Part shown: in pieces, positions 2,778 to 35,158 of the stretch | How the letters are laid out: the number at the start of each line of letters is the position of its first letter | Numbering within the stretch: position 1 is the first letter of the stretch | DNA from: Escherichia coli | Lineage (GTDB): Bacteria > Pseudomonadota > Gammaproteobacteria > Enterobacterales > Enterobacteriaceae | Strand: one strand, 5' to 3' | Assembly: GCF_024502345.1 (NCBI RefSeq) | Contig: NZ_JALDNN010000001.1 | DNA length: 64,000 bases | Made by a program: the position numbers and the translations under genes | The notes under the pieces: model-generated | What the model was told of the DNA's origin: nothing | Database searches by the model: none | The model's input: the letters and a program-made list of their open reading frames with translations, nothing else

Positions 2778-4421
2778 ATGTTGAAGCGCCTACTAAAAAG
2801 ACCCTCTTTGAATTTACTCGCCTGGCTATTGTTGGCCGCTTTTTATATCTCTATCTGCCTGAATATTGCCTTTTTTAAACAGGTGTTGCAGGCGCTGCCG
2901 CTGGACTCGCTGCATACCGTACTGGTTTTCTTGTCGATGCCGGTCGTCGCCTTCAGCGTGATTAATATTGTCCTGACACTAAGCTCTTTCTTATGGCTTA
3001 ATCGACCGCTGGCCTGCCTGTTTATTCTGGTTGGCGCGGCTGCACAATATTTCATAATGACTTACGGCATCGTCATCGACCGCTCGATGATTGCCAATAT
3101 TATTGATACCACTCCGGCAGAAAGCTATGCGCTGATGACACCGCAAATGTTATTAACGCTGGGATTCAGCGGCGTGCTTGCTGCGCTGATTGCCTGCTGG
3201 ATTAAAATCAAACCTGCCACCTCGCGTCTGCGCAGTGTTCTTTTCCGTGGAGCCAATATTCTGGTTTCTGTACTGCTGATTTTGCTGGTAGCCGCACTAT
3301 TTTATAAAGACTACGCCTCGTTGTTCCGCAACAACAAAGAGCTGGTGAAGTCCTTAAGCCCCTCTAACAGCATTGTTGCCAGCTGGTCATGGTACTCCCA
3401 TCAGCGACTGGCAAATCTGCCGCTGGTGCGAATTGGTGAAGACGCGCACCGCAACCCGTTAATGCAGAACGAAAAACGTAAAAATTTGACCATCCTGATT
3501 GTCGGCGAAACCTCGCGGGCGGAGAACTTCTCCCTCAACGGCTACCCGCGTGAAACTAACCCGCGGCTGGCGAAAGATAACGTGGTCTATTTCCCTAATA
3601 CCGCATCTTGCGGCACGGCAACGGCAGTTTCAGTACCGTGCATGTTCTCGGATATGCCGCGAGAGCACTACAAAGAAGAGCTGGCACAGCACCAGGAAGG
3701 CGTGCTGGATATCATTCAGCGAGCGGGCATCAACGTGCTGTGGAATGACAACGATGGCGGCTGTAAAGGTGCCTGCGACCGCGTGCCTCACCAGAACGTC
3801 ACCGCGCTGAATCTGCCTGATCAGTGCATCAACGGCGAATGCTATGACGAAGTGCTGTTCCACGGGCTGGAAGAGTACATCAATAACCTGCAGGGTGATG
3901 GCGTGATTGTCTTACACACCATCGGCAGCCACGGTCCGACCTATTACAACCGCTATCCGCCGCAGTTCAGGAAATTTACCCCAACCTGCGACACCAATGA
4001 GATCCAGACCTGTACCAAAGAGCAACTGGTGAACACTTACGACAACACGCTGGTTTACGTCGACTATATTGTTGATAAAGCGATTAATCTGCTGAAAGAA
4101 CATCAGGATAAATTTACCACCAGCCTGGTTTATCTTTCTGACCACGGTGAATCGTTAGGTGAAAATGGCATCTATCTGCACGGTCTGCCTTATGCCATCG
4201 CCCCGGATAGCCAAAAACAGGTGCCGATGCTGCTGTGGCTGTCGGAGGATTATCAAAAACGGTATCAGGTTGACCAGAACTGCCTGCAAAAACAGGCGCA
4301 AACGCAACACTATTCACAAGACAATTTATTCTCCACGCTATTGGGATTAACTGGCGTTGAGACGAAGTATTACCAGGCTGCGGATGATATTCTGCAAACT
4401 TGCAGGAGAGTGAGTGAATGA
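2778..4421 (+). CDS. eptA: Lipid A phosphoethanolamine transferase
   Basis: 547-aa product from ATG 2778 (tool ORF begins 15 codons earlier); N-terminal membrane region plus sulfatase-like domain; overlaps basR start by 4 nt. Confidence 0.92.
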
Positions 4422-5086
4422 AAATTCTGATTGTTGAAGACGATACGCTGTTATTGCAGGGACTGATTCTGGCGGCGCAAACCGAAGGCTACGCGTGCGA
4501 TGGCGTGACAACCGCGCGGATGGCGGAACAAAGCCTTGAGGCCGGTCATTACAGCCTGGTGGTACTGGATTTAGGGTTACCCGACGAAGATGGACTGCAT
4601 TTTCTCGCCCGTATCCGGCAGAAAAAATATACCCTGCCGGTACTGATCCTCACCGCTCGCGATACGCTGACCGACAAAATCGCCGGGCTGGATGTCGGTG
4701 CCGATGACTATCTGGTGAAGCCTTTTGCGCTGGAAGAGTTACATGCCCGTATCCGCGCCCTGCTACGACGCCATAATAATCAGGGCGAAAGTGAGCTGAT
4801 TGTTGGCAATCTGACGCTGAATATGGGTCGCCGTCAGGTATGGATGGGCGATGAAGAGTTGATTCTGACGCCCAAAGAATATGCTCTGCTGTCACGGTTA
4901 ATGCTCAAAGCAGGCAGTCCGGTGCATCGGGAAATTCTCTACAACGACATCTATAACTGGGACAATGAACCCTCGACCAACACCCTGGAAGTGCATATCC
5001 ACAATCTGCGCGACAAAGTGGGCAAAGCCCGTATCCGCACCGTGCGCGGCTTTGGCTATATGCTTGTCGCGAATGAGGAAAACTAA
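4418..5086 (+). CDS. basR: Two-component response regulator (OmpR family)
   Basis: 222-aa ORF with receiver domain and winged-helix C-terminus. Confidence 0.95.
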
Positions 5087-11970: not shown

Positions 11971-11987
11971 TTGTATTGTGATCGGTA

Positions 11988-12165
<178 letters not shown>

Positions 12166-12726: not shown

Positions 12727-12759
12727 CTGTTAGTCACTTTTAATTAACCAAATCGTCAC
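12727..12759 (+). promoter_or_regulatory. Pho box (PhoB binding repeats) of the phnC promoter
   Basis: Three 11-bp-phased repeats (ctgttagTCAC, ttttaatTAAC, caaatcgTCAC) 45-77 bp upstream of phnC; an extra CTGTCAT heptamer at 12698. Confidence 0.55.
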
Positions 12760-12803
12760 AATAATCCGCCACGATGGAGCCACTTTTTTAGGGAGGCTGC
12801 ATC

Positions 12804-13592
12804 ATGCAAACGATTATCCGTGTCGAGAAGCTCGCCAAAACCTTCAATCAGCATCAGGCGCTGCATGCGGTTGATCTGAACATTCATCACGGTGAAATGG
12901 TGGCTCTGCTTGGGCCGTCGGGTTCCGGCAAATCCACCCTTTTACGTCATTTAAGCGGTTTGATTACCGGCGATAAATCCGCCGGTAGCCATATCGAGCT
13001 ACTGGGCCGCACTGTCCAGCGCGAAGGCCGCCTGGCCCGCGATATCCGCAAAAGCCGCGCCAACACCGGCTACATCTTCCAACAATTCAACCTGGTGAAC
13101 CGCCTGAGCGTACTGGAGAACGTGCTGATTGGCGCGCTCGGCAGCACGCCGTTCTGGCGCACCTGTTTTAGCTGGTTCACCGGCGAGCAGAAACAGCGCG
13201 CGTTACAGGCGCTGACCCGCGTTGGCATGGTGCATTTTACCCATCAGCGCGTTTCCACCCTCTCCGGCGGCCAGCAGCAGCGTGTGGCGATTGCCCGCGC
13301 GCTGATGCAGCAGGCGAAGGTGATTCTGGCCGATGAACCGATCGCCTCGCTGGACCCGGAATCGGCGCGCATCGTGATGGACACCCTGCGCGACATAAAC
13401 CAGAACGACGGCATCACCGTGGTCGTCACGCTGCATCAGGTGGATTACGCCCTGCGCTACTGCGAGCGCATCGTCGCCCTGCGTCAGGGGCACGTCTTCT
13501 ACGACGGCAGCAGCCAACAGTTTGATAACGAACGTTTTGACCATCTCTACCGCAGCATTAACCGCGTCGAAGAGAACGCGAAAGCTGCCTGA
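12804..13592 (+). CDS. phnC: Phosphonate ABC transporter ATP-binding protein
   Basis: Walker [13 protein letters not shown] signature LSGGQQQR, Walker B ILADEP. Confidence 0.95.
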
Positions 13593-13616: not shown

Positions 13617-14633
13617 ATGAACGCTAAGATAATTGCCTCGCTGGCCTTCACCAGCATGTTCAGCCTCAGCACCCTGTTAACCCCGGCGCATGCCGAAGAG
13701 CAGGAAAAGGCGCTGAATTTCGGCATTATTTCAACGGAATCACAGCAAAACCTGAAACCGCAATGGACGCCGTTTTTACAGGATATGGAGAAGAAGCTGG
13801 GCGTGAAGGTCAACGCCTTCTTTGCCCCGGATTACGCGGGCATTATCCAGGGAATGCGCTTCAACAAAGTGGATATCGCCTGGTACGGCAACCTGTCGGC
13901 GATGGAAGCGGTGGATCGCGCCAACGGTCAGGTCTTCGCTCAGACCGTAGCGGCGGACGGATCGCCGGGTTACTGGAGCGTGTTGATCGTCAACAAAGAT
14001 AGCCCGATCAACAACCTGAACGATCTGCTGGCGAAGCGGAAAGATCTCACCTTCGGCAATGGCGATCCTAACTCCACCTCTGGCTTCCTCGTCCCCGGTT
14101 ACTACGTCTTTGCCAAAAACAATATCTCCGCTAACGACTTTAAGCGCACCGTCAACGCCGGGCATGAAACCAACGCGCTGGCCGTCGCCAACAAGCAGGT
14201 GGATGTTGCCACCAACAACACCGAAAACCTCGACAAGCTGAAAACCTCCGCGCCGGAGAAGTTGAAAGAACTGAAAGTGATCTGGAAGTCGCCGCTGATC
14301 CCAGGCGATCCGATCGTCTGGCGCAAAAATCTTTCCGAAACCACCAAAGACAAGATCTACGACTTCTTTATGAACTACGGCAAAACGCCGGAAGAAAAAG
14401 CGGTGCTGGAACGCCTGGGCTGGGCACCGTTTCGCGCTTCCAGCGACCTGCAACTGGTGCCGATTCGCCAGCTCGCGCTGTTTAAAGAGATGCAGGGCGT
14501 GAAAAGCAATAAAGGACTGAATGAGCAGGACAAGCTGGCAAAAACCACCGAGATTCAGGCGCAGCTGGATGACCTGGACCGCCTGAACAACGCGCTAAGC
14601 GCGATGAGTTCGGTGAGTAAAGCGGTGCAGTAA
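13617..14633 (+). CDS. phnD: Phosphonate ABC transporter periplasmic binding protein
   Basis: 338-aa ORF with signal peptide. Confidence 0.95.
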   Translation: MNAKIIASLAFTSMFSLSTLLTPAHAEEQEKALNFGIISTESQQNLKPQWTPFLQDMEKKLGVKVNAFFAPDYAGIIQGMRFNKVDIAWYGNLSAMEAVDRANGQVFAQTVAADGSPGYWSVLIVNKDSPINNLNDLLAKRKDLTFGNGDPNSTSGFLVPGYYVFAKNNISANDFKRTVNAGHETNALAVANKQVDVATNNTENLDKLKTSAPEKLKELKVIWKSPLIPGDPIVWRKNLSETTKDKIYDFFMNYGKTPEEKAVLERLGWAPFRASSDLQLVPIRQLALFKEMQGVKSNKGLNEQDKLAKTTEIQAQLDDLDRLNNALSAMSSVSKAVQ

Positions 14634-14635
14634 AT

Positions 14636-14728
14636 CGTAGGTCGGATAAGACGCCCCGGCGTCGCATCCGACAATGTGCAGGCGTTGATGCCGGATGCGG
14701 TGCAAGCACCTTATCCGGCCTACAGACC
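14636..14728. repeat. REP pair between phnD and phnE
   Basis: gtcggataagacg...gcgtcgcatccgac and gccggatgcgg...ccttatccggcc palindromic units. Confidence 0.75.
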
Positions 14729-14738
14729 GGAGCCAAAC

Positions 14739-15518
14739 ATGCAAACCATCACCATCGCCCCACCCAAGCGCAGCTGGTTCTCGCTTCTGAGCTGGGCCGT
14801 TGTACTCGCCGTGCTGGTCGTCTCGTGGCAGGGCGCGGAAATGGCCCCGCTCACGCTGATTAAAGACGGCGGCAACATGGCGACTTTCGCCGCCGACTTC
14901 TTCCCGCCTGATTACAGCCAGTGGCAGGATTACCTCACCGAAATGCTCGTCACGCTGCAAATCGCCGTCTGGGGCACGGCGCTGGCGGTGGTGCTCTCCA
15001 TCCCCTTCGGCCTGATGAGCGCCGAAAACCTGGTGCCGTGGTGGGTTTACCAGCCCGTTCGCCGCCTGATGGACGCCTGCCGCGCCATTAACGAAATGGT
15101 CTTCGCCATGCTGTTCGTGGTCGCCGTCGGCCTCGGCCCGTTCGCTGGCGTGTTGGCGCTGTTTATCCACACCACCGGCGTGCTCTCCAAACTGCTTTCC
15201 GAAGCGGTGGAAGCGATTGAACCCGGCCCGGTGGAAGGCATTCGCGCCACCGGCGCCAACAAGCTGGAAGAGATCCTTTACGGCGTGCTGCCACAGGTAA
15301 TGCCGCTGCTGATCTCCTACTCCCTCTATCGCTTCGAATCCAACGTCCGCTCGGCGACCGTCGTCGGCATGGTCGGTGCAGGCGGGATCGGCGTCACCCT
15401 GTGGGAAGCGATTCGCGGTTTCCAGTTCCAACAAACCTGCGCCCTGATGGTGCTTATCATCGTCACGGTCAGCCTGCTGGATTTCCTCTCTCAACGGTTG
15501 CGTAAGCACTTTATCTGA
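14739..15518 (+). CDS. phnE: Phosphonate ABC transporter permease (apparently intact)
   Basis: Continuous ~259-aa frame from MQTITIAPP to the stop; the tool ORF starts upstream inside the REP element. Confidence 0.88.
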
Positions 15519-15538: not shown

Positions 15539-16264
15539 ATGCACTTGTCTACACATCCGACCAGCTACCCAACACGCTATCAGGAGATAGCCGCAAAACT
15601 TGAGCAGGAGCTTCGTCAACACTACCGCTGCGGCGACTATCTTCCCGCCGAGCAGCAACTGGCGGCGCGCTTTGAGGTGAACCGCCACACCCTGCGCCGC
15701 GCCATCGACCAACTGGTGGAAAAAGGCTGGGTACAGCGCCGTCAGGGCGTCGGCGTGCTGGTGCTGATGCGCCCGTTCGATTACCCGCTCAACGCCCAGG
15801 CGCGTTTTAGCCAGAACCTGCTGGATCAGGGCAGCCATCCCACCAGCGAAAAACTGCTGTCAGTATTGCGCCCGGCCTCCGGTCACGTCGCTGACGCGCT
15901 GGGGATCAAGGAGGGCGAGAACGTTATCCACCTGCGCACCCTGCGCCGGGTCAACGGCATCGCGCTCTGTTTAATCGACCACTACTTCGCGGACCTCACC
16001 CTCTGGCCGACGCTGCAACGCTTCGACAGCGGCTCGCTGCACGATTTTCTGCGCGAGCAAACCGGGATTGCACTGCGCCGCAGCCAGACACGGATCAGCG
16101 CCCGCCGCGCCCAGGCCAAAGAGTGCCAGCGTCTTGAAATCCCGAATATGTCGCCGCTGCTGTGCGTGCGCACCCTTAACCACCGTGACGGTGAAAGCAG
16201 CCCGGCGGAGTACTCCGTCAGCCTGACGCGCGCCGACATGATTGAATTCACTATGGAGCACTGA
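15539..16264 (+). CDS. phnF: GntR-family repressor of the phn operon
   Basis: N-terminal GntR HTH plus UTRA-like C-terminus; ATG at 15539. Confidence 0.9.
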   Translation: MHLSTHPTSYPTRYQEIAAKLEQELRQHYRCGDYLPAEQQLAARFEVNRHTLRRAIDQLVEKGWVQRRQGVGVLVLMRPFDYPLNAQARFSQNLLDQGSHPTSEKLLSVLRPASGHVADALGIKEGENVIHLRTLRRVNGIALCLIDHYFADLTLWPTLQRFDSGSLHDFLREQTGIALRRSQTRISARRAQAKECQRLEIPNMSPLLCVRTLNHRDGESSPAEYSVSLTRADMIEFTMEH

Positions 16265-16717
16265 ATGCACGCAGATACCGCGACCCGCCAGCACTGGATG
16301 TCCGTACTGGCACACAGCCAACCGGCAGAACTGGCAGCCCGCCTGAACGCGCTGAACATCACCGCCGACTATGAGGTGATCCGCGCCGCCGAAACCGGCC
16401 TGGTGCAGATTCAGGCGCGAATGGGCGGCACCGGCGAACGCTTTTTTGCCGGCGACGCCACGCTCACCCGCGCCGCCGTACGCCTGACTGACGGCACGCT
16501 CGGCTACAGCTGGGTGCTGGGGCGCGACAAACAGCACGCCGAACGCTGCGCGCTGATTGACGCGCTGATGCAGCAATCTCGCCACTTTCAAAACTTATCA
16601 GAAACGCTTATTGCCCCGCTGGACGCTGACCGTATGGCACGCATTGCCGCACGCCAGGCCGAAGTGAACGCCAGCCGGGTCGACTTCTTTACGATGGTTC
16701 GCGGAGACAACGCATGA
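16265..16717 (+). CDS. phnG: C-P lyase core complex subunit
   Basis: 150-aa ORF; operon position. Confidence 0.92.
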
Positions 16718-17298
16718 CCCTGGAAACCGCTTTTATGCTTCCCGTGCAGGATGCCCAGCACAGTTTTCGTCGCCTGTTAAAGGCCATGAGCGAGCCGGGC
16801 GTGATTGTCGCCCTGCATCAGCTTAAACGCGGCTGGCAGCCGCTGAATATCGCCACCACCAGCGTGCTGCTGACGCTGGCCGATAACGACACGCCGGTGT
16901 GGCTTTCTGCCCCATTAAGTAACGATATAGTCAGCCAGAGCCTGCGTTTTCATACCAACGCGCCGCTGGTCAGCCAGCCGGAACAGGCGACCTTCGCGGT
17001 AACGGATGAGGCGATTTCCAGCGAACAGCTTAACGCCCTTTCAACCGGCACCGCCGTTGCGCCGGAAGCGGGCGCGACGCTGATTTTACAGGTCGCCAGC
17101 CTGAGCGGCGGGCGCATGTTGCGCCTCACCGGCGCGGGCATTGCCGAAGAACGAATGATCGCCCCGCTGCTGCCGGAGTGCATTCTGCACGAACTCACCG
17201 AGCGCCCGCACCCGTTCCCGCTCGGCATCGACCTGATCCTGACCTGCGGCGAGCGCCTGCTGGCTATTCCGCGAACCACTCATGTGGAGGTGTGCTGA
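16714..17298 (+). CDS. phnH: C-P lyase core complex subunit
   Basis: 194-aa ORF, translationally coupled to phnG. Confidence 0.92.
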
Positions 17299-18362
17299 TG
17301 TACGTTGCCGTGAAAGGGGGCGAAAAGGCGATCGATGCCGCACACGCCCTGCAAGAGAGCCGACGCCGGGGCGATACCGATTTGCCTGAACTGAGCGTCG
17401 CCCAGATTGAACAGCAGCTTAATCTTGCGGTGGATCGCGTGATGACCGAAGGCGGCATTGCCGACCGCGAACTGGCGGCGCTGGCGCTGAAACAGGCCAG
17501 CGGCGATAACGTCGAAGCAATTTTCCTGCTGCGCGCCTACCGCACCACGCTGGCGAAGCTGGCGGTGAGCGAACCGCTCGACACCACCGAGATGCGTCTC
17601 GAACGGCGTATCTCCGCTGTTTATAAAGATATTCCCGGCGGCCAACTGCTTGGCCCAACCTACGACTACACCCATCGCCTGCTCGATTTCACCCTGCTGG
17701 CAAACGGCGAAGCGCCGACGCTGACCACCGCCGACAGCGAACAACAGCCGTCGCCGCACATTTTCAGCCTGCTGGCGCGTCAGGGGCTGGCGAAGTTTGA
17801 AGAGGATAGCGGCGCACAGCCGGATGACATCACCCGCACGCCGCCGGTTTACCCCTGCTCACGTTCTTCCCGTTTGCAGCAGTTGATGCGCGGCGACGAA
17901 GGCTATTTGCTGGCGCTGGCCTACTCCACCCAACGCGGTTACGGGCGCAACCACCCGTTCGCGGGTGAAATCCGCAGTGGTTACATCGACGTGTCGATTG
18001 TGCCGGAAGAGCTGGGATTTGCGGTGAACGTCGGCGAATTGCTGATGACTGAGTGTGAAATGATCAACGGTTTTATCGACCCGCCGGGTGAGCCGCCGCA
18101 CTTCACGCGCGGCTACGGGCTGGTGTTCGGCATGAGCGAGCGCAAAGCGATGGCGATGGCGCTGGTCGATCGTGCGTTGCAGGCTCCGGAGTACGGCGAG
18201 CACGCGACAGGCCCGGCGCAGGATGAAGAGTTCGTGCTGGCGCATGCCGACAACGTCGAAGCCGCAGGCTTTGTCTCGCACCTCAAACTCCCGCACTACG
18301 TCGATTTCCAGGCCGAACTGGAGCTACTCAAACGTCTGCAACAGGAGCAGAACCATGGCTAA
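17298..18362 (+). CDS. phnI: C-P lyase subunit PhnI (ribosyl transfer to phosphonate)
   Basis: 354-aa product from [12 protein letters not shown]; the tool ORF from 17178 is an in-frame upstream extension. Confidence 0.92.
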   Translation: MYVAVKGGEKAIDAAHALQESRRRGDTDLPELSVAQIEQQLNLAVDRVMTEGGIADRELAALALKQASGDNVEAIFLLRAYRTTLAKLAVSEPLDTTEMRLERRISAVYKDIPGGQLLGPTYDYTHRLLDFTLLANGEAPTLTTADSEQQPSPHIFSLLARQGLAKFEEDSGAQPDDITRTPPVYPCSRSSRLQQLMRGDEGYLLALAYSTQRGYGRNHPFAGEIRSGYIDVSIVPEELGFAVNVGELLMTECEMINGFIDPPGEPPHFTRGYGLVFGMSERKAMAMALVDRALQAPEYGEHATGPAQDEEFVLAHADNVEAAGFVSHLKLPHYVDFQAELELLKRLQQEQNHG

Positions 18363-19200
18363 TCTGAGCGGCTACAACTTTGCCTACCTCGACGAGCAGA
18401 CCAAACGCATGATCCGCCGCGCCATCTTAAAAGCGGTGGCGATCCCCGGTTATCAGGTGCCGTTTGGCGGGCGTGAGATGCCGATGCCGTACGGCTGGGG
18501 AACCGGCGGTATTCAGCTTACCGCCAGCGTGATTGGCGAAAGCGACGTGTTGAAGGTGATTGACCAGGGCGCGGATGACACCACCAACGCCGTGTCGATT
18601 CGCAACTTTTTCAAGCGCGTGACCGGGGTAAACACCACCGAGCGCACGGACGATGCAACGGTCATCCAGACGCGTCACCGCATCCCCGAAACGCCGCTGA
18701 CCGAAGATCAGATAATTATTTTCCAGGTGCCGATCCCGGAACCACTGCGCTTTATCGAGCCGCGCGAAACGGAAACCCGCACCATGCACGCGCTGGAGGA
18801 GTACGGCGTGATGCAGGTGAAACTGTATGAAGATATCGCCCGCTTCGGTCATATCGCCACTACCTACGCCTATCCGGTGAAGGTGAACGGGCGCTACGTA
18901 ATGGACCCATCGCCGATCCCGAAATTCGATAACCCGAAAATGGACATGATGCCCGCCCTGCAACTGTTCGGCGCCGGGCGTGAGAAGCGCATCTATGCGG
19001 TGCCGCCGTTTACCCGCGTGGAAAGCCTCGATTTCGACGATCACCCGTTCACCGTTCAGCAGTGGGATGAGCCATGCGCCATCTGCGGATCGACCCACAG
19101 CTATCTTGATGAAGTGGTGCTGGATGACGCCGGAAACCGCATGTTTGTCTGCTCCGATACCGATTATTGCCGCCAACAGAGCGAGGCAAAAAGCCAATGA
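18355..19200 (+). CDS. phnJ: C-P lyase catalytic subunit (radical SAM, carbon-phosphorus bond cleavage)
   Basis: 281-aa product from MANLSGYNFAYLDEQ; C-terminal Cys cluster CAICGS...CSDTDYC. Confidence 0.92.
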   Translation: MANLSGYNFAYLDEQTKRMIRRAILKAVAIPGYQVPFGGREMPMPYGWGTGGIQLTASVIGESDVLKVIDQGADDTTNAVSIRNFFKRVTGVNTTERTDDATVIQTRHRIPETPLTEDQIIIFQVPIPEPLRFIEPRETETRTMHALEEYGVMQVKLYEDIARFGHIATTYAYPVKVNGRYVMDPSPIPKFDNPKMDMMPALQLFGAGREKRIYAVPPFTRVESLDFDDHPFTVQQWDEPCAICGSTHSYLDEVVLDDAGNRMFVCSDTDYCRQQSEAKSQ

Positions 19201-19955
19201 ATCAACCGTTACTTTCGGTCAATAACCTGACCCACCTTTACGCGCCGGGCAAAGGCTTTAGCGATGTCTCTTTTGATTTATGGCCGGGGGAAGTGCTGGG
19301 CATTGTCGGGGAATCCGGTTCCGGGAAGACCACGCTGCTGAAATCAATTTCCGCGCGTCTGACGCCGCAGCAGGGGGAGATTCACTATGAAAACCGTTCC
19401 CTCTATGGCATGAGCGAGGCCGACCGCCGTCGCCTGCTGCGCACCGAATGGGGCGTGGTGCATCAGCATCCGCTCGACGGCCTGCGCCGCCAGGTGTCGG
19501 CAGGCGGCAATATCGGCGAGCGGCTGATGGCGACCGGGGCACGTCATTACGGCGATATTCGCGCCACCGCGCAGAAGTGGCTGGAAGAGGTGGAAATTCC
19601 CGCCAACCGGATCGACGACCTGCCGACCACCTTTTCCGGCGGCATGCAGCAGCGTTTGCAGATTGCCCGCAACCTGGTGACGCATCCGAAGCTGGTGTTT
19701 ATGGATGAACCGACCGGCGGGCTGGATGTGTCGGTGCAGGCGCGCCTGCTCGACCTGCTGCGCGGCCTGGTGGTGGAGCTGAATCTGGCGGTGGTGATTG
19801 TCACCCACGATTTAGGCGTCGCCCGCCTGCTGGCGGACCGTTTGCTGGTGATGAAGCAGGGGCAAGTGGTGGAGAGTGGGTTAACCGACCGCGTGCTCGA
19901 CGACCCGCACCATCCGTATACACAACTGCTGGTGTCATCGGTTTTGCAGAATTGA
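19197..19955 (+). CDS. phnK: C-P lyase-associated ABC-type ATPase
   Basis: 252-aa product with Walker [10 protein letters not shown]. Confidence 0.92.
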
Positions 19956-19961
19956 GCCGGT

Positions 19962-20050
<89 letters not shown>

Positions 20051-20065
20051 ACCACGAGGCGAAAA

Positions 20066-20746
20066 ATGATTAACGTACAAAACGTCAGTAAAACCTTCAT
20101 CCTGCACCAGCAAAACGGCGTGCGCCTGCCCGTCCTCAACCGCGCCTCGCTCACCGTCAACGCGGGCGAATGCGTGGTGCTCCACGGCCATTCCGGCAGC
20201 GGAAAATCAACCCTGCTACGCTCGCTGTACGCCAACTATCTGCCCGACGAAGGGCAAATCCAGATCAAACACGGTGACGAATGGGTCGATCTGGTCACCG
20301 CGCCAGCGCGCAAAGTGGTGGAAATCCGCAAAACCACCGTTGGCTGGGTGAGCCAGTTTCTGCGCGTCATCCCGCGTATTTCAGCACTGGAAGTGGTAAT
20401 GCAGCCGCTGCTCGATACCGGCGTACCGCGTGAAGCCTGCGCCGCTAAAGCCGCGCGTCTGCTCACCCGCCTGAACGTGCCGGAACGCCTGTGGCATCTG
20501 GCGCCATCGACCTTCTCCGGCGGCGAACAGCAGCGCGTCAACATCGCCCGCGGCTTTATCGTCGACTACCCGATTCTGCTGCTCGACGAACCTACCGCCT
20601 CGCTGGACGCTAAAAACAGCGCCGCCGTAGTGGAACTGATCCGCGAAGCCAAAGCCCGTGGCGCAGCCATCGTCGGCATCTTCCATGACGAAGCCGTACG
20701 TAATGACGTCGCCGACCGCCTGCACCCAATGGGAGCCTCTTCATGA
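20066..20746 (+). CDS. phnL: C-P lyase-associated ABC-type ATPase
   Basis: 226-aa product from [11 protein letters not shown]; Walker [10 protein letters not shown]. Confidence 0.92.
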
Positions 20747-21879
20747 TTATCAATAACGTTAAACTGGTGCTGGAAAACGAAGTCGTACACGGTTCGCTGG
20801 AGATGCAGGACGGCGAAATCCGCGCCTTTGCCGAAAGCCAGAGCCGCCTGCCGGAGGCGATGGACGGCGAAGGCGGCTGGCTGCTGCCGGGGCTGATTGA
20901 GCTGCATACCGATAACCTGGATAAATTCTTCACCCCGCGCCCGAAAGTCGACTGGCCTGCCCACTCGGCGATGAGCAGCCACGACGCGCTGATGGTGGCG
21001 AGCGGCATCACCACCGTACTGGATGCCGTGGCAATTGGCGACGTGCGCGACGGCGGCGATCGGCTGGAGAATCTGGAGAAGATGATCAACGCCATCGAAG
21101 AGACGCAGAAACGCGGCGTCAACCGCGCCGAGCACCGCCTGCACCTGCGCTGCGAGCTGCCGCACCACACCACGCTGCCGCTGTTTGAAAAACTGGTGCA
21201 GCGCGAACCGGTGACGCTGGTGTCGCTGATGGACCACTCGCCGGGCCAGCGCCAGTTCGCCAACCGCGAGAAGTATCGCGAATATTATCAGGGTAAATAC
21301 TCGCTCACTGATGCGCAGATGCAGCAGTACGAAGAAGAGCAACTGGCGCTCGCCGCACGCTGGTCGCAGCCGAATCGCGAATCCATCGCCGCCGTGTGCC
21401 GCGCGCGAAAAATTGCGCTTGCCAGCCACGATGACGCCACGCACGCCCACGTTGCCGAATCCCACCAGCTTGGCAGCGTGATCGCCGAATTTCCCACCAC
21501 GTTTGAAGCAGCGGAAGCCTCGCGCAAGCATGGCATGAACGTGCTGATGGGCGCGCCAAATATCGTGCGCGGCGGTTCGCACTCCGGCAACGTGGCGGCC
21601 AGTGAACTGGCGCAGCTTGGCCTGCTGGATATCCTCTCTTCCGACTACTACCCCGCCAGCCTGCTGGATGCGGCGTTCCGCGTCGCCGATGACCAGAGCA
21701 ACCGCTTTACGCTGCCGCAGGCAGTGAGGCTGGTAACTAAAAATCCGGCGCAGGCGCTTAATCTCCAGGATCGCGGGGTGATTGGCGAGGGCAAACGCGC
21801 CGACCTGGTGCTGGCGCATCGCAAGGGCAACCACATTCATATCGACCACGTCTGGCGTCAGGGTAAAAGGGTGTTCTGA
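20743..21879 (+). CDS. phnM: Amidohydrolase-family C-P lyase component (triphosphate ester diphosphatase)
   Basis: 378-aa ORF; operon position. Confidence 0.92.
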
Positions 21880-21881
21880 TA

Positions 21882-22436
21882 ATGGGAAAACTGATTTGGT
21901 TAATGGGGCCGTCCGGCTCCGGGAAAGACAGCCTGCTGGCGGAACTCCGCCTGCGGGAACAAACTCAGCTACTGGTGGCGCATCGCTACATCACGCGCGA
22001 CGCCAGCGCCGGAAGCGAAAACCATATCGCCCTGAGCGAGCAGGAGTTTTTTACCCGCGCGGGGCAAAACCTACTGGCCTTAAGCTGGCACGCTAACGGT
22101 CTGTATTATGGCGTCGGCGTCGAGATCGACCTCTGGCTGCACGCCGGATTCGACGTGCTGGTCAACGGCTCACGCGCCCATCTGCCGCAGGCGCGGGCGC
22201 GCTATCAATCGGCGCTGCTGCCCATCTGCTTACAGGTTTCGCCAGAGATCCTGCGACAGCGCCTGGAAAACCGTGGACGCGAAAACGCCAGTGAAATTAA
22301 CGCCCGGCTGGCGCGCGCTGCCCGCTATACTCCACAGGATTGCCATACGCTCAATAATGACGGTAGCCTGCGCCAGTCGGTCGACACGCTGCTGACGCTG
22401 ATTCATCAGAAGGAGAAACACCATGCCTGCTTGTGA
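21882..22436 (+). CDS. phnN: Ribose 1,5-bisphosphate phosphokinase
   Basis: P-loop GPSGSGKDS; 184-aa ORF. Confidence 0.92.
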
Positions 22437-22857
22437 GCTTCGCCCGGCCACGCAGTACGACACCGACGCGGTTTACGCGCTGATTTGCGAGCTAAAACAG
22501 GCGGAGTTTGACCACCACGCGTTTCGCGTGGGCTTTAACGCCAACCTGCGCGACCCGAACATGCGCTACCATCTGGCGCTGCTGGATGGCGAAGTTGTCG
22601 GCATGATCGGCCTGCATTTGCAGTTTCATCTGCATCATGTCAACTGGATCGGCGAAATTCAGGAGCTGGTGGTGATGCCGCAGGCGCGCGGCCTGAACGT
22701 CGGCAGTAAATTGCTGGCGTGGGCAGAAGAAGAAGCCCGCCAGGCCGGGGCCGAAATGACCGAACTTTCCACCAACGTGAAGCGCCACGACGCACACCGT
22801 TTCTATCTGCGCGAAGGCTACGAGCAGAGCCACTTCCGCTTCACGAAGGCGCTGTAA
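22423..22857 (+). CDS. phnO: Aminoalkylphosphonate N-acetyltransferase (GNAT)
   Basis: 144-aa GNAT-like ORF. Confidence 0.9.
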
Positions 22858-22858
22858 C

Positions 22859-23617
22859 ATGAGCCTGACCCTCACGCTCACCGGCACCGGCGGCGCACAG
22901 GGCGTTCCGGCATGGGGCTGCGAGTGTGCGGCCTGCGCCAGAGCGCGGCGCTCGCCGCAGTATCGCCGCCAGCCGTGCAGCGGCGTAGTAAAGTTTAACG
23001 ACGCAATCACCCTGATCGACGCCGGGCTGCACGATCTCGCCGATCGCTGGTCGCCCGGTTCGTTCCAGCAGTTTTTGCTGACGCACTACCATATGGATCA
23101 CGTGCAGGGGCTATTCCCGCTGCGCTGGGGCGTGGGCGATCCGATCCCGGTTTACGGCCCACCGGATGAACAGGGCTGCGACGATCTGTTTAAACATCCG
23201 GGCCTGCTTGATTTTAGCCACACGGTGGAACCGTTTGTAGTGTTTGATTTGCAGGGATTGCAGGTCACGCCGCTGCCGCTCAACCACTCAAAACTGACCT
23301 TCGGTTATCTGCTGGAAACGGCACACAGCCGGGTGGCGTGGCTGTCTGACACCGCTGGCTTGCCGGAAAAAACGCTGAAATTTTTACGCAATAATCAGCC
23401 GCAGGTAATGGTGATTGATTGCAGCCACCCGCCGCGCGAGGATGCGCCACGTAATCACTGTGATTTAAACACCGTGCTTGCGCTGAATCAGGTTATCCGC
23501 TCGCCGCGCGTGGTTCTGACCCATATCAGCCACCAGTTTGATGCGTGGCTGATGGAAAACGCACTGCCGTCGGGGTTTGAGGCGGGGTTTGATGGGATGG
23601 AGATTGGGGTGGCGTGA
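22859..23617 (+). CDS. phnP: Metallo-beta-lactamase-fold phosphodiesterase
   Basis: HxHxDH motif ([10 protein letters not shown]); 252 aa. Confidence 0.92.
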
Positions 23618-23640
23618 TGAGAGGGAATGTGCGCGCTGGC

Positions 23641-23740
23641 CCCCTCACCCTAACCCTCTCCCCAGAGGGGCGAGGGGACCGATTGTGCTCGATATTGAAT
23701 ATTACGCTGGTTTTCTCCCTCTCCCCATTGGGGTGAGGGG
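23641..23740. repeat. Pair of GC-rich imperfect palindromes downstream of phnP
   Basis: ccctctcccc-aga-ggggcgagggg and ccctctcccc-att-ggggtgagggg, flanked by cccctcaccc / gggtgagggg. Confidence 0.5.
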
Positions 23741-23763
23741 CGATGCCTGCTCCATACCCAACC

Positions 23764-24093
23764 TCATCGCCCATACTCATCTTCCATTCTCCGCTCTTCA
23801 TCTTCTAGCTGCCGACGCTCCTGATCAAGCTGGCGCTGGCGATCGTCCAGCTGCCTGCGGCGATCTTCAAACTGGCGGCGGCGGTCGTCATATTGTCTGC
23901 GCCGATCGTCGCTCACTTCACGCTGCCAGCCGTCGTCGCGCGAATCTTCATAGTCTCGCCCACGGTCAGGGTTATAAGCGTCGTTAATCGCCTGCTGAAT
24001 ATTGCCAATGGTGTCGTCGATAATATCGGCCTGGGCCGGTACGGTGGTCAGCGTGAGCAGGGTGAATAAAAGAAATAGCGGAAAGCGTTTCAT
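23764..24093 (-). CDS. yjdP: Secreted low-complexity Asp/Arg-rich protein
   Basis: 109-aa ORF with signal peptide then DDRRRQ-type charged repeats. Confidence 0.8.
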   Translation of the reverse strand: MKRFPLFLLFTLLTLTTVPAQADIIDDTIGNIQQAINDAYNPDRGRDYEDSRDDGWQREVSDDRRRQYDDRRRQFEDRRRQLDDRQRQLDQERRQLEDEERRMEDEYGR

Positions 24094-24161
24094 TAGCCAA
24101 CCTCAAAAAGAAACTCTATCCACATTAGTCATTACTCATCCATGCAAGTAGTGGATGAATC

Positions 24162-24479
24162 TCAATTTCTCCGCTGCTCTATTGCCGTAATCGCTTCCAC
24201 GCTTTGTTGATGACGACCGCCTTCGTACTGTGCGCCCAGCCACGCATCCACAATCATTTTTGCCAGTTCGAGGCCAACCACTCGTGAACCAAAAGCCAGT
24301 GCAACTTCACTGGCGTAATGCGGATAATCAGTGCGCTCTGACGACCTGGTTTCTTTATCAATCCCCTCACTCATTGACCATGAATAAAAGGCTGGCACAG
24401 CAACACAGAATCCTGCGGTGCCAGCGACATGACCGCCCATTGCTCCGGTACGTTTTTTAATAAAAAACACCGGTTGCAT
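24162..24479 (-). pseudogene. rpiB: Decayed remnant of ribose-5-phosphate isomerase B
   Basis: 105-codon ORF whose C-terminus (FGSRVVGLELAKMIVDAWLGAQYEGGRHQQ.VEAITAIEQRRN) and SSERTDYPHYAS segment match RpiB as I recall it (about 149 aa), with about 44 codons missing internally and a diverged N-terminus. Confidence 0.5.
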
Positions 24480-24731
24480 TGATTAATTGTGCTCAGTATT
24501 TGCCGAAGTACAATATATATAATAAATATATAAAACACCTCATATTATTTACAGAGATAATAAATTCGCGTACTTTTCCCTCTTCAGCACAAATGCCTAA
24601 TAAAATGGATCGTTCCGCTCACACTTCCACTTATTAAAGTCGCAATTTCCCAATTATGATAACGCCAGCTTTAAATGACGTATTTTGCATGGATTACATA
24701 TTTACGACATAAATGATAAATGGAGATTTAT

Positions 24732-31962: not shown

Positions 31963-34110
31963 ATGAAAAAAGTCGTCACGGTTTGCCCCTATTGCGCATC
32001 AGGTTGCAAAATCAACCTGGTCGTCGATAACGGCAAAATCGTCCGGGCGGAGGCAGCGCAGGGGAAAACCAACCAGGGTACCCTGTGTCTGAAGGGTTAT
32101 TATGGCTGGGATTTCATTAACGATACCCAGATCCTGACCCCGCGCCTGAAAACCCCCATGATCCGTCGCCAGCGTGGCGGCAAACTCGAACCTGTTTCCT
32201 GGGATGAGGCACTGAATTACGTTGCCGAGCGCCTGAGCGCCATCAAAGAGAAGTACGGTCCGGATGCCATCCAGACGACCGGCTCCTCGCGTGGTACGGG
32301 TAACGAAACCAACTATGTAATGCAAAAATTTGCGCGCGCCGTTATTGGTACCAATAACGTTGACTGCTGCGCTCGTGTCTGACACGGCCCATCGGTTGCA
32401 GGTCTGCACCAATCGGTCGGTAATGGCGCAATGAGCAATGCTATTAACGAAATTGATAATACCGATTTAGTGTTCGTTTTCGGGTACAACCCGGCGGATT
32501 CCCACCCAATCGTGGCGAATCACGTAATTAACGCTAAACGTAACGGGGCGAAAATTATCGTCTGCGATCCGCGCAAAATTGAAACCGCGCGCATTGCTGA
32601 CATGCACATTGCACTGAAAAACGGCTCGAACATCGCGCTGTTGAATGCGATGGGCCATGTCATTATTGAAGAAAATCTGTATGACAAAGCGTTCGTCGCT
32701 TCACGTACAGAAGGCTTTGAAGAGTATCGTAAAATCGTTGAAGGCTACACACCGGAGTCGGTTGAAGATATCACCGGCGTCAGCGCCAGTGAGATTCGTC
32801 AGGCGGCACGGATGTATGCCCAGGCGAAAAGCGCCGCCATCCTGTGGGGCATGGGTGTAACCCAGTTCTACCAGGGCGTGGAAACCGTGCGTTCTCTGAC
32901 CAGCCTCGCGATGCTGACCGGTAACCTCGGTAAGCCGTATGCGGGTGTAAACCCGGTTCGTGGTCAGAACAACGTGCAGGGTGCCTGCGATATGGGCGCG
33001 CTGCCGGATACGTATCCGGGATACCAGTACGTGAAAGATCCGGCTAACCGCGAGAAATTCGCCAAAGCCTGGGGCGTGGAAAGCCTGCCTGCTCATACCG
33101 GTTATCGCATCAGCGAGCTGCCGCACCGCGCAGCGCATGGCGAAGTGCGTGCCGCGTACATTATGGGCGAAGATCCGCTACAAACTGACGCGGAGCTGTC
33201 GGCAGTACGTAAAGCCTTTGAAGATCTGGAACTGGTCATCGTTCAGGACATCTTTATGACCAAAACCGCGTCGGCGGCGGATGTTATTTTACCGTCAACG
33301 TCGTGGGGCGAGCATGAAGGCGTGTTTACTGCGGCTGACCGTGGCTTCCAGCGTTTCTTCAAAGCAGTTGAACCGAAATGGGATCTGAAAACGGACTGGC
33401 AAATCATCAGTGAAATCGCCACCCGTATGGGTTATCCGATGCACTACAACAACACCCAGGAGATCTGGGATGAGTTGCGTCATCTGTGCCCGGATTTCTA
33501 CGGTGCGACTTACGAGAAAATGGGCGAACTGGGCTTCATTCAGTGGCCTTGCCGCGATACTTCAGATGCCGATCAGGGGACTTCTTATCTGTTTAAAGAG
33601 AAGTTTGATACCCCGAACGGTCTGGCGCAGTTCTTCACCTGCGACTGGGTAGCGCCAATCGACAAACTCACCGACGAGTACCCGATGGTACTGTCAACGG
33701 TGCGTGAAGTTGGTCACTACTCTTGCCGTTCGATGACCGGTAACTGTGCGGCACTGGCGGCGCTGGCTGATGAACCTGGCTACGCACAAATCAATACCGA
33801 AGACGCCAAACGTCTGGGTATTGAAGATGAGGCATTGGTTTGGGTGCACTCGCGTAAAGGCAAAATTATCACCCGTGCGCAGGTCAGCGATCGTCCGAAC
33901 AAAGGAGCGATTTACATGACCTACCAGTGGTGGATTGGTGCCTGTAACGAGCTGGTTACCGAAAACTTAAGCCCGATTACGAAAACGCCGGAATACAAAT
34001 ACTGCGCCGTGCGCGTCGAGCCGATCGCCGATCAGCGCGCCGCCGAGCAGTACGTGATTGACGAGTACAACAAGTTGAAAACTCGCCTGCGCGAAGCGGC
34101 ACTGGCGTAA
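31963..34110 (+). CDS. fdhF: Formate dehydrogenase H, selenocysteine-containing molybdoenzyme
   Basis: Two tool ORFs (31963..32382 and 32431..34110) are one frame joined through in-frame TGA at 32380-32382 (codon 140); N-terminal Cys cluster CPYCASGC. Confidence 0.93.
32380..32425 (+). other. UGA selenocysteine codon plus downstream SECIS hairpin
   Basis: In-frame TGA immediately followed by cacggcccatcggttgcaggtctgcaccaatcggtcgg, which can fold as a stem-loop. Confidence 0.7.
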
Positions 34111-34894: not shown

Positions 34895-35158
34895 GTAGGC
34901 CTGATAAGACGCGTTAAGCGTCGCATCAGGCGTTGATGTCGGATGCGGCGTAAACGCCTTATCCGACCTACAAAATCACGCTAAATCAGGCTATTGCGCT
35001 GTCTGGCGTAGGCCTGATAAGACGCGGCAAGCGTCGCATCAGGCATTGATGTCGGATGCGGCGTAAACGCCTTATCCGACCTACAAAATCACGCTAAATC
35101 AGGCTATTGCGCTGTCTGACGTAGGCCTGATAAGACGCACCAGCGTCGCATCAGGCAT
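34895..35158. repeat. Tandem BIME/REP array (two ~114-bp units plus a partial third)
   Basis: Near-identical units taggcctgataagacgc...gcgtcgcatcaggc...gtcggatgcggcgtaaacgccttatccgacctacaaaatcacgctaaatcaggctattgcgctgtctg. Confidence 0.85.

Follow-up and report, generated by a model that had tools for sequence, protein, structure and literature searches.

The closest described counterparts of the locus studied here are the phnE alleles of other Escherichia coli strains. An 8-bp duplication in phnE renders K-12 Phn- (PMC3463581, PMC6469041, PMC4759930), and the gene is flagged as a pseudogene in the K-12 record NC_000913.3. The duplication is lost by slippage (PMC3463581, PMC4759930), and K-12 PhnE has been reactivated by deletion of GCTGGCGT at positions 407-414 of the ORF (PMC6469041). 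According to a literature that includes PMC3463581 and PMC6469041, PhnE regains its function when the 8 bp are lost, and most E. coli have a functional phnE.

We analysed a stretch of 64,000 nucleotides of E. coli DNA, called the window below, in which a first-pass annotation had read phnE as intact. The explanation that best accounts for our data, and that we consider very probable, is an ordinary functional phnE in an intact, PhoB-activated 14-gene C-P lyase operon on a non-K-12 E. coli-type chromosome, with a predicted Phn+ phenotype.

The phnE gene and its 8-bp repeat tract

The phnE coding sequence lies on the + strand, from an ATG at 14739 to a TGA ending at 15518, and encodes 259 amino acids (MQTITIAPP...LRKHFI) with zero internal stops. 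This assignment draws on the open reading frame, on the family model TIGR01097, and on comparison with the alleles of E. coli B and of a K-12 revertant. It agrees with the continuous frame of about 259 residues, starting at MQTITIAPP, that had been described earlier. The range given with that description, 14636-15518, was right at its end but not at its start: position 14636 lies just past the phnD stop (14633), and the first ~100 nt (14636-14738) are noncoding. Read mechanically, the ORF reaches further upstream to a GTG at 14676, giving 280 residues, and the 21 added codons are REP sequence. The TIGR01097 model gives the 259-aa and 280-aa forms an equal score, its alignment beginning at residue 16 of the shorter one. 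The ATG equivalent to 14739 is the phnE start in the RefSeq annotation of E. coli C, E. coli B, and FDAARGOS_944, and a Shine-Dalgarno-like GGAG, as read from the letters (14729-14732, + strand), is found 6 nt upstream of it.

The REP sequence belongs to two inverted, BIME-like REP elements that occupy the phnD-phnE intergenic region (14637-14723, unstranded), outside phnE. They were recognised as inverted repeats and by the REP consensus, and the segment is identical in K-12. The consensus had seven matches in the window, compared with zero expected. Further copies were noticed at 11982-12163, where a tandem pair sits in the yjdM-yjdN spacer and the copy number is higher in K-12, at 19962-19995 in the 110-nt gap between phnK and phnL, and at 34938-35084 and 45655-45688.

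The protein was assigned to its family with a wide margin. It scored 312 bits against NCBIfam TIGR01097, the PhnE equivalog (E = 2.8e-93, model positions 8-251 of 252), and the curated whole-protein cutoff of that model is 216.7 bits. A protein identical to the window's PhnE carries a precomputed match to Pfam PF00528 (BPD_transp_1, the ABC permease transmembrane domain). The genes of the cognate ATPase, phnC, and of the binding protein, phnD, are both immediately upstream of phnE. PhnCDE is an ABC importer of phosphonate/phosphate, and the phnE product is, as judged from its sequence, its membrane permease, with transport as the predicted function.

Alignment to K-12 placed the 8-bp repeat tract at 15144-15159 (+ strand), where the window has two units, GCTGGCGT GTTGGCGC. 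The tract of K-12 MG1655 consists of three units, GCTGGCGT GCTGGCGT GCTGGCGC, and that of E. coli B REL606 of two, GCTGGCGT GCTGGCGC. Over 911 nt, the sole length difference between the window and MG1655 was the absence of one 8-bp unit from the window, and this alignment contained no compensating indel in phnE. The window thus lacks exactly one unit relative to K-12 and has the same number as B. The frameshifting duplication that the first-pass annotation had given for K-12 is borne out by the extra unit in MG1655, by the pseudogene flag, and by the literature. It is because the tract has two units, compared with three in K-12, that phnE is in frame in the window. The encoded protein is identical in 257 of 259 residues to the PhnE of REL606 and to an in silico revertant of K-12 from which the 8 bp were deleted. 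The differences from these two, F59Y and A70L, are both conservative, and E. coli C shares Leu-70.

The second unit differs from the canonical one by a synonymous C>T substitution at 15153 (Leu, CTG to TTG), which breaks an otherwise perfect repeat. As a result, perfect tandem homology no longer spans 15 nt (GCTGGCGTGCTGGCG) but is limited to 5-nt TGGCG blocks. A perfect tandem repeat able to slip reversibly would read GCTGGCGT GCTGGCGC; the second unit found in the window is GTTGGCGC, and TRF detected no tandem array in the two-unit tract at 15144-15159. The phnE gene of the window is therefore ON, but its tract departs in sequence from the canonical switchable one.

The phn operon and its predicted phenotype

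All 14 cistrons, phnCDEFGHIJKLMNOP, are present in the window in this order and without interruption, as the first-pass annotation had stated, and all 14 were found intact. Upstream of phnE lie phnC, encoding the 262-aa ABC transporter ATPase (12804-13592), and phnD, encoding the 338-aa periplasmic phosphonate-binding protein (13617-14633). Downstream, phnF encodes a GntR-type regulator of 241 aa (15539-16264) and is followed by phnG, phnH, phnI, phnJ, and phnK, the C-P lyase core and ATPase (16265-19955), and by phnL, phnM, phnN, phnO, and phnP (20066-23617); all are on the + strand. The genes phnC, D, F, G, H, I, J, K, L, M, O, and P match their K-12, B, and C counterparts in length, begin with proper start codons, and are free of internal stops. 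Of the two adjacent Met codons at the start of phnN (21879-21884), the leading one reads ATA and not ATG (21879-21881), which gives a predicted protein of 184 aa compared with 185; further public assemblies call the 184-aa PhnN as well.

Compared with K-12, B, or C, the operon has ~280-305 synonymous and 30-38 nonsynonymous differences, corresponding to a dS of ~0.12-0.13, a dN of ~0.004-0.005, and a dN/dS of 0.03-0.04. This low ratio indicates sustained purifying selection on the phn operon. The amino acid differences seen in these comparisons are spread over the 14 Phn proteins; PhnM, for example, has six and PhnH four. Like F59Y and A70L in PhnE, the ~30 substitutions in the other Phn proteins all look conservative.

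The promoter of phnC contains a Pho-box region, CTGTTAGTCAC TTTTAATTAAC CAAATCGTCAC A (12727-12760, + strand), within which the PhoB ChIP-seq motif ATTAACCAAATCGTCACA is placed at 12743-12760 by identity to the mapped site of K-12. The whole yjdN-phnC intergenic region is identical across the window, K-12, and E. coli C. In K-12, the PhoB site has been mapped, and phnC RNA amounted to 32,470 reads in the wild type and 13 in a ΔphoB mutant (PMC10294691). The earlier suggestion of Pho boxes upstream of phnC therefore stands, since the window and K-12 have the same promoter sequence, with no difference in the ChIP-mapped PhoB site. A search with the generic Pho-box consensus CTGTCATAWAWCTGTCAY, allowing up to three mismatches, gave no match at phnC. 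The PhoB site of phnC is reported to be of low affinity (PMC4447250), and the miss is consistent with a site of this kind. The phoBR and pst genes lie outside the window.

Taken as a whole, the predicted Phn+ genotype is well supported, because the 14 genes are intact, dN/dS is low, and the promoter is identical to that of K-12; growth on phosphonates is its prediction. Under phosphate starvation, PhoB~P would activate the phnC promoter, phosphonates (and Pi) would enter through PhnCDE, and the C-P bond would be cleaved by PhnG to PhnP, making the strain Phn+. We infer expression, transport, and growth on phosphonates from the open frame, the repeat number, the intact genes, the promoter identity, and the low dN/dS.

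This prediction was weighed against two other explanations. The 8-bp duplication might be truly present, with the in-frame reading produced by a compensating change or by a sequencing or assembly error. We found no evidence supporting this explanation and regard it as next to impossible. A duplication combined with a compensating change was looked for by alignment and is excluded by the clean absence of 8 bp, with no other gap across the 911 nt. Over the C-terminal 120 residues, the window's PhnE and that of E. coli B are the same. Around phnE, 6.8 kb of the window recur with 100% identity in an independent public assembly, GCA_050022275.1, and with 99.94% identity in two others; the in-frame phnE is therefore not a sequencing artefact of this record. 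The other explanation accepts the frame and supposes that the strain is nevertheless Phn-, either because a missense change affects one of the Phn proteins or because phoBR or pst, outside the window, is defective. The ~30-38 amino acid differences from K-12, B, or C over the 14 Phn proteins leave room for such a change, the start of PhnN is displaced by one codon, and the IS1 in nearby pdeC shows that this genome carries gene-inactivating events. However, a dN/dS of 0.03-0.04 speaks for function having been maintained, B or C has many of the same substitutions, stops and frameshifts number zero, and the same PhnE and PhnM proteins were found again in many independent assemblies, drafts and gut metagenomes among them. 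We consider a Phn- strain with this operon unlikely, and a functional phnE in an intact operon remains our preferred explanation.

Repeat copy number among E. coli genomes

The state of the tract was surveyed in 5,426 complete E. coli genomes with junction-specific megablast queries, whose 28-nt seed cannot form across a wrong copy number. The gene is present in 5,394 of the genomes, of which the queries classify ~4,400-4,700; the remainder carry other SNPs in the flanks. Two canonical units with K-12-type flanks were found in 2,462 of the 5,426 genomes and two canonical units with B-type flanks in 1,201, a set that overlaps the former; combined, the two sets comprise at least ~3,340 genomes. 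The two-unit GTTGGCGC variant of the window was present in 45 genomes as an exact match and in 58 in total, its carriers including E. coli C, WG5, and O145:H28. Three or more units were counted in 1,012 of the 5,426. An in-frame phnE is thus the majority state in E. coli: of the 5,426 complete genomes, ~3,400 or more have two-copy in-frame alleles.

The cryptic three-copy allele occurs in ~19% of complete E. coli genomes, including clinical and animal isolates, and the bovine isolate OkiPb01713 has seven units and a phnE annotated as frameshifted. The three-copy OFF allele is thus not a laboratory oddity of K-12; the copy number of the tract varies in nature. An intact phnE is the wild-type majority state and already well known, and it says little about a strain beyond its not being K-12 or a close relative. 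The window represents a non-K-12 strain whose genotype predicts that it uses phosphonates, as E. coli normally does, and the observation in itself matters little.

A further reading concerns the C>T substitution at 15153, which might hold phnE in the ON state by making the slipped-strand gain of a third unit, that is, the switch to OFF, much rarer than in canonical two-copy alleles. We regard this as a real possibility, though one that falls somewhat short of an even chance. The interruption of the repeat is visible in the sequence, and 45-58 complete genomes have the T variant in its two-copy form, with a three-copy derivative of it in none of the complete genomes, whereas canonical-unit alleles reach three or more copies in 1,012 genomes, and seven in one of these. 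On the other hand, the T-variant genomes come from few clonal lineages, so that 0 of ~58 is weak evidence, and clonal relationship likewise links most of the three-copy genomes, which are K-12 derivatives and phylogroup A relatives. This reading can hold alongside the main explanation of an ordinary functional phnE and is not an alternative to it. Extended to its carriers, it would make the substitution a natural lock that stabilises phnE ON; the lineages concerned (those of the window, E. coli C, and O145:H28) would have given up phase-variable phosphonate uptake, and the phnE repeat, of which 2, 3, and as many as 7 copies are seen, would act as a genuine contingency locus in E. coli in the wild. 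We put this extension forward tentatively and would lean against it at present. The few lineages with an interrupted repeat, that of the window included, may switch less readily.

Strain background and comparison with described alleles

The first-pass annotation had concluded from phnE and an IS1 in pdeC that the DNA does not come from a standard K-12 MG1655 background, and the comparison of the phn genes leads to the same conclusion. Over the 13 comparable phn genes, the window differs from K-12 at 317 nucleotides (~3%), with ~97% identity across the operon. The IS1 in pdeC (yjcC) is complete (768 bp, 54879-55646, minus strand) and is bordered by a perfect 9-bp target duplication, AACTGTCGC, at 54870-54878 and 55647-55655. 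It divides pdeC into two ORF fragments. In E. coli B REL606, pdeC is likewise annotated as a pseudogene, but by a different lesion, an internal stop.

Two other loci in the window were noticed. The interval between phnP and yjcS (23618-24720) lacks the alsRBACEK operon and an intact rpiB; it is ~7.5 kb long in K-12, B, and C and ~1.1 kb in the window, where it consists of yjdP and a short rpiB remnant according to the annotation of the collinear FDAARGOS_944. The fdhF gene (31964-34110) is listed only as a 559-aa ORF (32431-34110), as expected, because the gene, which is 715 aa long in the annotation of collinear strains, is split by an in-frame TGA that encodes selenocysteine.

Among complete E. 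coli genomes, the best identity to positions 10-34 kb of the window is 97.8%, and 34-54.5 kb reach up to 99.6%, to B1-type strains. We interpret the phn-yjcS-mdtNOP segment, at ~12-31 kb, as a recombination mosaic haplotype. A 1-kb sliding comparison, in which the mosaic runs from ~12 to 30 kb, resolved this segment into blocks with 90.6%-100% identity to the best match, and its flanks are 99.2-99.8% identical.

Set beside the described alleles, the phnE of the window resembles the functional ones. The phnE of E. coli B and of the K-12 phnE+ revertant, as far as they are presented in PMC3463581 and PMC6469041, which cite Makino et al. 1991 and Iqbal et al. 2004, have two units and the same frame, stop, and operon position as the window. 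At the nucleotide level, REL606 phnE differs from the window at 26 positions, and its second unit is GCTGGCGC, compared with GTTGGCGC in the window. The closest allele class in a complete genome is that of E. coli C (NZ_CP020543.1; protein WP_001302225.1), with 99.0-99.1% nucleotide identity. This allele shares the T-variant repeat tract and Leu-70 with the window and is one amino acid (F59Y) and 9 nucleotides apart from it, whereas the rest of the operon is only ~97% identical. The cryptic OFF allele of K-12 MG1655 (pseudogene b4583) occupies the same locus, with the same flanks, REP elements, and promoter as in the window. In MG1655, however, three units lead to a frameshift after codon 141, aberrant residues, and a premature stop, whereas the two-unit phnE of the window has none of these and is read through to its TGA.
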